From the NCBI RefSeq assembly GCF_003334385.1, contig NZ_QOWN01000137.1: 986 nucleotides of DNA. The stretch is one strand, 5' to 3'. The notes under the pieces are model-generated. The model was not told where the DNA came from. It worked only from the letters and a program-made list of their open reading frames with translations, and ran no database searches. Positions 1 to 986 of this stretch are shown piece after piece. The stretch is from Escherichia coli. Lineage in GTDB: Bacteria; Pseudomonadota; Gammaproteobacteria; Enterobacterales; Enterobacteriaceae. Each line of letters starts with the position of its first letter. Position 1 is the first letter of the stretch. The translations under genes were made by a program, and so were the position numbers.

Positions 1-986
1 GGGCCTGCATCACCTTTGGGACCAGCTGCACCAGCCGGTCCCCGTGGGCCTGCGGGCCCCACTGCACCAGGTGCGCCAGGTTCCCCCCTGTCCCCCTTCG
101 GTCCGGGGACTGCTGCCCGGGTTGCTGCCTCTTCTGCCTTCGTTTTTGCTGCCTGCACTTCTGCCATTACCGCTTTCACAGCCTTTGGGGTTGCCGCTTT
201 TGTTTCATCATCGCTGTTGGTATCGCTGCTCAGCTGTACAACACCTTTCTGTGATGTGCTGGCATCCGGAACACTGGCGACACTGCCTGCGGGACCCGCA
301 GGACCTGCGGGGCCGGTTTCTCCCCGAGGGCCTGCGGGACCTGCCGGACCTGTTGCGCCGGGTTCACCTTTATCCCCTTTCGGGCCGGTTTGCCCTGCCG
401 GACCCTGTGGTCCGGGTGGTCCGGCCTCTCCACGTGGGCCGGTGTCACCTTTCGGCCCCGGCGGTCCGCCCGGGTCACCTTTATCGCCCTTCGGTCCCTG
501 TGGACCTGTTTCTCCCCGTTCTCCCTTTGGCCCCGGCTCACCTTTTGGTCCGACCGCCCCCGTTGCCCCGGCTGGTCCCTGTGCCCCTGTGGCACCCTGT
601 GGACCTGTGTCCCCCTTCTCGCCCGCCGGTCCCCGGGCATTCTCTGCCCGTTTCTTCGCTTCCTCTGCACTCGCCGCCGACGCTTCAGCACGCTTCAGGA
701 TTTCCGCTGCCACCGCTTCCAGCTCTGCAAGCGCTTTCGGGTAATACTGCGCCTCATCCTGTTCCATCAGAAATTTATTCAGCGTTCCCGGCTCAGAATC
801 CGCCTTCACCAGAATGTCACCCACATACGACGGGGCGTACCCTTCCGTGTTCAGCGTCACCCGGTACCACCCCGGCTCCACATCAAAACTGTAACTGCCG
901 GTTTCCCCCGGCTGCCCCTGCGCCACCGTGGTGACTATCACTGTCTCTGTGGTGCGTCGCGCTTTCAGCTCTATGGTGCATCCCGG
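1..986 (-). CDS. stf: Phage side tail fiber protein, Stf-like, with collagen-like Gly-X-Y repeats; internal fragment, partial at both ends (N-terminus lies beyond position 986, C-terminus beyond position 1)
   Basis: Minus-strand frame with codons complementing 984-986 down to 3-5 is open for all 328 codons; I checked it codon by codon. Translation N to C: [328 protein letters not shown]. The N-terminal part resembles, from memory, the N-terminus of phage lambda Stf (CTIQLKARR...SQPGTLNDFL), and the VQLSS...AATPKAVK motif is the phage tail-fibre repeat signature. Codon usage (CTG Leu, AAA Lys, GAA Glu) is enterobacterial. The symbol stf is a family-level assignment, not a specific orthologue. 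No search was run. Confidence 0.92.
3..104 (-). repeat. Collagen-like Gly-X-Y repeat tract 2 (residues 295-328), at least 11 triplets, continuing beyond the window start
   Basis: [34 protein letters not shown] has perfect Gly periodicity from G295 to G328 and is truncated by the window edge. Confidence 0.88.
105..164 (-). other. Region encoding a short Ala/Lys/Glu-rich helical spacer (residues 275-294)
   Basis: [20 protein letters not shown] lies between the fibre repeat and the second collagen tract. Helix prediction is from composition only. Confidence 0.4.
165..254 (-). other. Region encoding a phage tail-fibre repeat motif (Phage_fiber_2-like), residues about 245-274
   Basis: [30 protein letters not shown] closely matches the conserved repeat remembered from lambda Stf and related fibres ([25 protein letters not shown]). 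Identified by eye, not by HMM. Confidence 0.75.
285..632 (-). repeat. Collagen-like Gly-X-Y repeat tract 1 (residues 119-234): 18 plus 20 triplets separated by a single extra Gly
   Basis: Gly occurs at every third residue from G119 to G170, then GG at residues 173-174 (+ coordinates 465-470) shifts the register by one, and periodicity continues from G174 to G234. X and Y positions are rich in Pro, Ala, Lys, Glu, Thr and Gln, typical of bacterial and phage collagen-like sequences. Confidence 0.9.
633..776 (-). other. Region encoding an Ala/Glu/Lys-rich predicted alpha-helical linker, possibly trimeric coiled coil (residues 71-118)
   Basis: Sequence [48 protein letters not shown] has a strongly helix-favouring composition with no Gly or Pro except one Pro. 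Helix or coiled-coil assignment is an inference from composition only. Confidence 0.5.
777..986 (-). other. Region encoding the conserved N-terminal tail-fibre domain (Phage_fiber_N-like, tail-attachment end), residues 1-70 of the window translation
   Basis: Residues [68 protein letters not shown] resemble the lambda Stf N-terminal region as I recall it. Composition is beta-rich and not collagen-like, and this DNA is less GC-biased than the collagen tract. The lambda comparison suggests the true start codon is roughly 15-20 codons beyond position 986. Confidence 0.75.

Follow-up and report, generated by a model that had tools for sequence, protein, structure and literature searches.

We characterized a 986-nucleotide (nt) stretch of Escherichia coli DNA (assembly GCF_003334385.1, contig NZ_QOWN01000137.1; hereafter the window) and found that it is the interior of a side tail fiber gene: codons 18-345, plus 2 nt of codon 346, of a 520-codon stf homolog carried by a lambda-like E. 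coli prophage. The full protein runs from an Stf-type N-terminal anchor through collagen rod 1, a Phage_fiber_2 (Pf2) module and collagen rod 2 to a small beta-rich C-terminal knob, and of these parts the window covers rod 1 and the Pf2 module completely, the anchor except for its first 17 residues, and the first 34 residues of rod 2. Taken as a whole, the locus is very probably best explained as the side tail fiber gene of a lambda-like prophage with collagen rods, a knob and a DUF4376 partner. An initial annotation, made from the letters of the window and without database searches, had placed it in a prophage late-gene region; that observation is confirmed and its interpretation supported, and the gene class and the type of locus are already known and ordinary. 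Flanking coordinates are given on a reference locus, L001, in which the fiber coding sequence occupies 11950-13512 and the window corresponds to 12001-12986.

Six-frame translation showed that frame 0 of the minus strand is stop-free across all 986 bases (328 codons), with 13 and 15 stops in the other two frames of that strand. An open frame is weak evidence in this DNA, because the GC-rich Gly-X-Y coding repeats (GC 66-71%; 71% in the first collagen-coding region) also leave the three plus-strand frames nearly stop-free, with 1-2 stops each; it is therefore homology, not openness, that decides the identity of the gene. The window translation matches the Pfam models phage_tail_N (E 8.7e-32), Phage_fiber_2 (E 4.7e-16) and Collagen, and the top PHROG match of the fiber is phrog_366, tail fiber protein (E 3e-121). 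A tandem-repeat finder returned only weak 8-10-nt arrays on the window; at the DNA level the collagen region is therefore no simple tandem repeat.

Two different readings of the same bases start from real signals. One is that the protein is a bacterial collagen-like surface adhesin of the Scl/Lcl type, suggested by its matches to the NCBIfam SclB, SclA and Lcl models (E 1e-42 to 1e-35); the other is that the real gene is a long open reading frame (ORF) of the plus strand (16-744 or 44-934, of 242 and 296 amino acids). Domain and context data already refute both, and we give them practically no chance. The adhesin scores lie far below the curated cut-offs (146 against 325, 124 against 400 and 120 against 500 bits) and are confined to the Gly-X-Y repeats, the fiber sequence has neither a signal peptide nor an LPXTG motif and starts with an Stf anchor domain, and the neighbors of the gene are J and a fiber-associated gene. 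The plus-strand ORFs were rejected as Pro/Gly/Ala-rich mirror images of the collagen codons, unannotated in the records examined. A comparable shadow ORF is found in the lambda record J02459, where the antisense 'orf206b' (L003 5148-5768, minus strand) lies within orf-401, the 5' half of stf.

The anatomy of the complete protein supports the assignment to the side tail fibers (Table 1). PF08400 aligns over residues 1-134 with positions 1-134 of its 134-position model (E 2.4e-42), a match to the collar domain of Ur-lambda Stf (residues 1-94; PDB 9E7M/9MGH; E 2e-30) covers the N-terminal 91 residues, and residues 1-131 are 53% identical to lambda orf-401/Stf. In Ur-lambda, the Stf collar domain forms a dodecameric collar at the gpV/gpM junction, with four trimeric OmpC-binding fibers (PMC12617516). 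Gly-X-Y runs occupy residues 136-192, 194-253 and 312-428. PF03406 (Phage_fiber_2) matches the full protein with an E-value of 8.7e-16, and residues 242-293 are 56% identical to lambda Stf 339-390. The spacer that holds this module is probably globular and would link the two collagen rods as a joint, by analogy with the 'internal globule' proposed for EPclB-type fibers (PMC3368898).

Table 1. Features of the fiber gene within the 986-nt window (window coordinates; residues numbered on the 520-residue protein).
Feature	Position	Strand	Basis
Part of fiber gene, codons 18-345 + 2 nt of 346, of 520; EPclC collagen-like class	1..986	-	Open frame; 100% identity to L001 12001-12986
Residues 18-91, beta-rich anchor (collar) domain for tail attachment	765..986	-	PDB 9E7M/9MGH match; lambda Stf similarity; role from PMC12617516
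Residues 92-134, Ala/Glu-rich C-terminal part of phage_tail_N, short neck before collagen	636..764	-	PF08400 and lambda Stf alignment to residue 129
Residues 136-251, first collagen-like Gly-X-Y triple-helix domain	285..632	-	Gly-X-Y runs; two Pfam Collagen matches
Residues 187-194, GDPGGPPG, single conserved Gly-X-Y register break of first collagen domain	456..479	-	Sequence
Residues 252-311, non-collagen spacer	105..284	-	Phage_fiber_2 repeat inside, residues 260-301, window 135-260
Residues 312-345, start of second collagen domain (to residue ~428, outside window)	1..104	-	Gly-X-Y run 312-428; left edge of exchangeable distal cassette here

This architecture is that of a published class and is not new. 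Ghosh et al. 2012 (PMC3368898) defined the EPclC class of E. coli prophage collagen-like proteins, whose members include ORF-401 of prophage P-EibA (AAF63232, 479 amino acids) and ECED1_2081 (520 amino acids). In a Pfam search with the full protein we found PF08400, two Collagen matches and PF03406, and no PF06820 (PfC); like the EPclC proteins, the fiber has the order PfN-Col-Pf2-Col, a C terminus unrelated to PfC and a GXPGGPXG break in Col1, and it lacks PCoil, as members of the class usually do. It has the same length as ECED1_2081, whereas it differs from the P-EibA fiber in the length of the distal collagen and in the knob; the two knobs are related and only ~20-25% identical. Experiments on the related EPclA proteins showed dumbbell-shaped trimers in which the collagen helix is genuine and thermally stable (PMC3368898).

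Comparison with lambda Stf (orf-401 plus orf-314 in laboratory lambda) defines what is shared and what is not. Shared are the position after J (and lom where present), the anchor, the Phage_fiber_2 motif and a partner gene of ~193 amino acids that comes next. Unlike lambda Stf, which has an Ala/Ser-rich shaft, the present fiber has two collagen triple-helix domains; it shows no similarity to the distal half orf-314, the T4 gp37-like, OmpC-binding tip of lambda, and its partner is a DUF4376 protein where that of lambda is Tfa.

The 5' end of the gene follows the lambda model closely. From this comparison the initial annotation had predicted that 15-20 N-terminal codons would be missing and that an ATG with a ribosome-binding site would lie about 50 bp past position 986 on the minus strand. 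Both predictions were borne out: the ATG is 51 nt beyond position 986, a GGGAG ribosome-binding site stands 6 nt upstream of it, and 17 codons are missing (MTVRISGVLKDGTGKPV); the N terminus is collinear with that of lambda Stf. A longer ORF is excluded because an in-frame TAA occurs 12 codons upstream of the ATG with no start codon between. Directly before the ribosome-binding site, 13-50 nt upstream of the ATG, we observed a GC-rich hairpin followed by eight T residues (L001 11900-11937; dG -22.5 kcal/mol, z -4.1, 0 of 200 shuffles as stable). The gap between J and stf that holds it contains no lom in L001; lom is found there in lambda, in P-EibA and in the loci L002 and L007. Judged by its sequence, the hairpin looks like an intrinsic terminator that would be read through by late antiterminated transcription.

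Three complete E. coli chromosomes (strains 2018-166, G6/7 and G8) carry the window at 100% identity, and 34 genomes carry it at 99% or more, always under the annotation 'prophage tail fiber N-terminal domain-containing protein'. Matches at 99.9% come from four deposited phage genomes (PhiR12_1, PhiR12_2, PhiR12_2_star and PhiR12_4), and orf-401 of prophage P-EibA, from strain ECOR-9, matches at 99% DNA identity. The flanks can be read with confidence whichever genome was the source, because the three 100% genomes share the same 520-amino-acid fiber (WP_096849294.1), the same downstream protein (WP_096849293.1), the same neighbors and the same insertion beside btsS. The phage structural genes expected around the window are all part of a complete lambdoid prophage of ~55 kb, with the fiber gene near its right end and btsS adjacent. 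In strain 2018-166 the order is integrase and excisionase, regulators, Q, three tRNAs, lysis, terminase, capsid, portal, tail, J, fiber, DUF4376, an Eib-like (YadA-type) gene, two small ORFs, a DinI-like gene and chromosomal btsS. The fiber gene directly follows the tail-tip gene J, which in L001 ends 185 nt upstream. The order J-(lom)-stf-DUF4376-YadA-like-hyp-hyp-DinI recurs in prophages at three insertion sites (btsS, ssrA and prfC); the right-end arrangement is thus a stable module and not an accident of one strain, since it is identical in the prophages at ssrA and prfC too.

Beyond position 1 the fiber gene continues for 526 nt, which encode residues 346-520 (175 codons) and the stop codon: the rest of the second collagen domain and a knob of ~85 residues. 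The C-terminal end thus lies on the side where it had been predicted. The last ~90 residues have no Pfam match, and a homolog search with the knob found only relatives that are at least 89% identical, all from E. coli. An alignment of eight sequences nevertheless shows a weak common framework among the knobs of several cassette types, with invariant G12, G38, P70, G71, F91 and R93, and a model built from these eight sequences is all-beta and of moderate confidence (predicted local distance difference test, pLDDT, 75.6).

We compared five loci, each at least 99% identical over the window. Up to residues ~339-362 their fibers are nearly identical; beyond that point the distal collagen differs in length, and the knobs differ too. 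The DUF4376 proteins vary within the first 70-110 residues and agree almost completely thereafter, with ~97% identity returning at codon ~70-80 of the gene. Homology to L001 ends at 12976 for P-EibA (window position 11, 10 nt inside) and at 12996 and 13058 for two other prophages (10 and 72 nt beyond position 1), and is found again from 13738-13769 onward, within the DUF4376 gene. What is exchanged is therefore a single cassette of ~700-790 bp that comprises the distal collagen, the knob and the first 70-110 residues of the partner; its junctions lie in repeats that code for collagen and where the conserved DUF4376 domain begins. With these breakpoints, the left edge of the cassette coincides with the low-coordinate edge of the window. 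Sharing by segment follows the same pattern: the window is found at 99% or more in 34 genomes, the next 1.1 kb in only five, and the 3' part of the DUF4376 gene at 84-88% in more than 100. Across 45 loci (40 distinct combinations), knob identity and DUF4376 N-terminal identity are strongly correlated (Pearson 0.855; 0 of 2000 Mantel permutations as high), nine knob clusters map to seven DUF4376 N-terminal clusters, and the DUF4376 C-terminal domain has a mean identity of 78%.

These breaks, among loci that otherwise agree at 99%, fit the expectation that the flank is a mosaic hotspot. The related suggestion that unusual content would lie in the flanks holds for the cassette edge and for the Eib-like gene described below; it does not hold throughout, as mosaic junctions also occur inside the window, at ~462-506 and ~594. 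In PhiR5_2 and PhiR12_3, homology (97% identity) is confined to window positions 1-506 and 1-462, respectively, and this junction adjoins the GDPGGPPG break of the first collagen domain. PhiR5_2 (PV340546; L092 2559-5118) encodes, within a different virion gene module (PHROGs 399/437/482/486), a 653-amino-acid fiber with an anchor that is only 26% identical, while residues ~205-520 are shared almost exactly and the partner is 99% identical. Phage 1720a-02 matches the anchor only (window 594-986, 90.6% identity). In the literature available we found no paper that describes the PhiR12 and PhiR5 phages, and their biology is taken here from the GenBank records.

The gene that follows the fiber begins 16 nt after its stop codon and has 193 codons. 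The initial annotation had expected a tfa-like chaperone gene here, and was right about position and size (193 against 194 amino acids for Tfa); membership of the Tfa/Caudo_TAP family is not supported, and the protein carries DUF4376 (PF14301, residues 73-183, E 8e-20). Its PHROGs families are labelled 'tail fiber protein', and RAST annotated the 99%-identical partner of PhiR5_2 as 'tail fiber assembly protein'. No NCBIfam model matched it, a profile search against PDB sequences found no solved relative, and two fold searches gave no significant match, with no Mu Tfa chain (PDB 5YVQ complex) among the structural neighbors listed.

The data support the DUF4376 partner as a functional analog of Tfa by position, modular design and literature precedent, rather than as a demonstrated member of the family. 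Like Tfa of lambda and Mu (Caudo_TAP), it is encoded directly downstream of the fiber gene and has ~190 residues. Alignment and breakpoints show a variable N terminus and a conserved C terminus, the design reported for Tfa by North et al. 2019, as quoted in PMC7882524. Both Alteromonas phage V22 (PMC7289586) and the Campylobacter CJIE1 prophages (PMC7882524) need the DUF4376 protein encoded next to the fiber gene, on its downstream side, for the fiber to function, and the DUF4376 proteins of Alteromonas phages have been termed fiber chaperones or 'transient chaperone caps' (PMC10579305). The present protein resembles V22 gp27, A5 gp9 and the protein downstream of the CJIE1 H-fiber in its C-terminal DUF4376 domain, its position just after the fiber gene and its similar size (195-239 amino acids in those phages), a likeness of domain, gene position and size rather than of directly compared sequences, between phages that differ in type and host.

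Natural chimeras join parts of the two families. Two IMG/VR viral contigs (L066 and L067; DUF4376 gene at ~3150-3900) encode a 248-amino-acid protein that combines a lambda Tfa-like part (residues 1-117, with 45% identity to Tfa 1-117, E 4e-37) with a part, residues 121-237, that is 69% identical to the DUF4376 domain of the L001 partner; the last 43 residues of the preceding fiber are 70% identical to the end of lambda Stf. Where Tfa has its C-terminal domain, these proteins have the DUF4376 module. Since such Tfa-N::DUF4376-C chimeras exist, we tentatively propose, as an idea somewhat more likely to need revision than to stand as it is, that the DUF4376 C-terminal domain is a second, structurally distinct fiber-assembly module that replaces the classical Tfa C-terminal domain, and that the Gly-X-Y repeats serve as recombination linkers that move a cassette of distal rod, knob and chaperone N-domain between phage morphotypes. 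The lambda-like prophage and the PhiR5_2 type offer an example of such movement: residues ~205-520 and the chaperone are ~99-100% identical in the two, and the anchors are unrelated.

The partner might instead be a structural part of the distal fiber, a subunit or cap in direct contact with the receptor like gp38 of T2-type phages, or it might be retained on the fiber, as Mu Tfa is (noted in PMC7882524), and not act as a transient chaperone. The PHROGs label, the 'caps' of the Alteromonas literature and the variable N-terminal domain, which would also be expected in a part that faces the host surface, are compatible with such a role. We consider it unlikely: the only experimental data on DUF4376 proteins concern a need in fiber maturation or function and not receptor contact, and one would hardly expect an exposed adhesin to be built from the half of the protein that is conserved best.

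Read as a side tail fiber with its own assembly partner, the locus suggests the following mechanism. Anatomy and exchange pattern come from the loci compared here, while trimerization and attachment we infer from lambda and EPclA. Three fiber chains would form a trimer, held at the tail by N-terminal domains that become part of the collar surrounding it. A hinged shaft would be made up of the paired collagen triple helices with the Pf2 joint, and the distal knob would contact a cell-surface receptor and speed adsorption. The DUF4376 protein would act as the fiber assembly chaperone, its variable N-terminal domain recognizing the knob and its conserved C-terminal domain driving trimerization. 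Cassette exchange might proceed through homology in the collagen-coding and DUF4376-coding sequences.

Several observations weigh against this picture. A BLAST comparison of the partner with lambda Tfa was insignificant (E 0.068 over 12 residues), and a Pfam scan of the partner gave DUF4376 only and no Caudo_TAP. The receptor-binding role of the knob is deduced from its position, its model being only of moderate confidence and matching no fold in the PDB; indeed, we infer the receptor, the trimerization and the chaperone dependence of this fiber alike. Co-variation of the knob with the DUF4376 N terminus could arise from physical adjacency alone. The informative point in that respect is that the junction lies inside the partner gene, at a domain boundary, and not between the two genes. 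The portal gene of strain 2018-166 is annotated as frameshifted (L005 33224-35808), and this prophage copy may thus be defective. Finally, in PhiR12_1 (PV340549; L004 10529-13696) a 2.58-kb IS21-like insertion element, with transposase and ATP-binding helper genes and an 8-bp duplication, interrupts the DUF4376 gene at a point equivalent to L001 13615-13622; the record was submitted as that of a phage and lists E. coli K-12 as host, which suggests that the partner, and perhaps the side fiber, is dispensable for plaque formation, as in laboratory lambda.

Some copies of this prophage type are decaying, given the frameshifted portal gene in 2018-166 together with strain SCU-104, in which the fiber gene is broken into two pseudogene pieces (L008 5950-7134). 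The fiber gene could accordingly be a remnant in a defective prophage that makes no working fiber, a view to which the insertion element in PhiR12_1 and the loss of Stf from laboratory lambda at no cost in viability (PMC12617516) would add. We nonetheless hold this to be very improbable: nothing interrupts the 520-codon frame, which has the same sequence in three genomes and is conserved to 99% or more in 34; both the start codon and the ribosome-binding site have been preserved; and the 99.9%-identical gene is present in deposited phage genomes for which laboratory hosts are listed (E. coli K-12 MG1655 or E. coli C). A working side tail fiber gene remains the preferred reading.

Downstream of the DUF4376 gene lies a second variable cassette. 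The next gene encodes a 441-amino-acid YadA-type trimeric autotransporter with a signal peptide-like N terminus, 55% identical to the immunoglobulin-binding autotransporter EibA over its C-terminal 263 residues (E 2e-87), and the NCBIfam YadA model matches residues 312-441. It occupies the position of eibA in P-EibA, after the fiber and DUF4376 genes, and has an Eib-like stalk and the same YadA-type C-terminal membrane anchor; its passenger domain differs from that of EibA and varies between loci. The variable region maps to L001 14975-15914: loci that agree on either side carry different passengers, the proteins range from 360 to 441 amino acids, and the signal peptide and YadA anchor are conserved across them. 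That phages carry Eib genes is well known. Between the DUF4376 gene and the Eib-like gene, an AT-rich gap of 800 bp contains only short, unsupported ORFs, and Rfam at gathering thresholds reported no family in L001 11600-17800. The initial annotation had also raised the possibility of an invertible segment beyond position 1, and we found none of the Mu G, P1 C or e14 P type: no invertase is annotated within 12 kb on either side of the fiber gene, the inverted repeats are only short, imperfect matches between collagen codons, and no hix/gix-like core is present near the fiber genes.

On the upstream side, ~7.5 kb before the fiber gene, we observed an ompC-like porin gene between the tail genes M and L (L001 4502-5665, 387 amino acids). 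It scores 496.7 bits against the NCBIfam OmpC subfamily model (cut-off 484), and in the phage collection it has only partial matches of ~73%, to porin genes of P7-like phages. Since lambda side fibers reportedly bind OmpC, an OmpC paralog that the prophage itself carries among its tail genes could change the set of receptors on the lysogen.

The locus was sequenced earlier in prophage P-EibA and the protein class was described in 2012; the value added here lies in the flanks, in the left edge of the exchangeable cassette at the edge of the window and in a DUF4376 partner instead of Tfa. The Tfa/DUF4376 chimeras provide a simple argument for functional equivalence, and could help to annotate the 'DUF4376 domain-containing protein' genes of E. 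coli prophages as fiber chaperones. The exchange pattern could also guide fiber swapping in engineered phages, in which the knob and the chaperone N-domain would have to be moved together.

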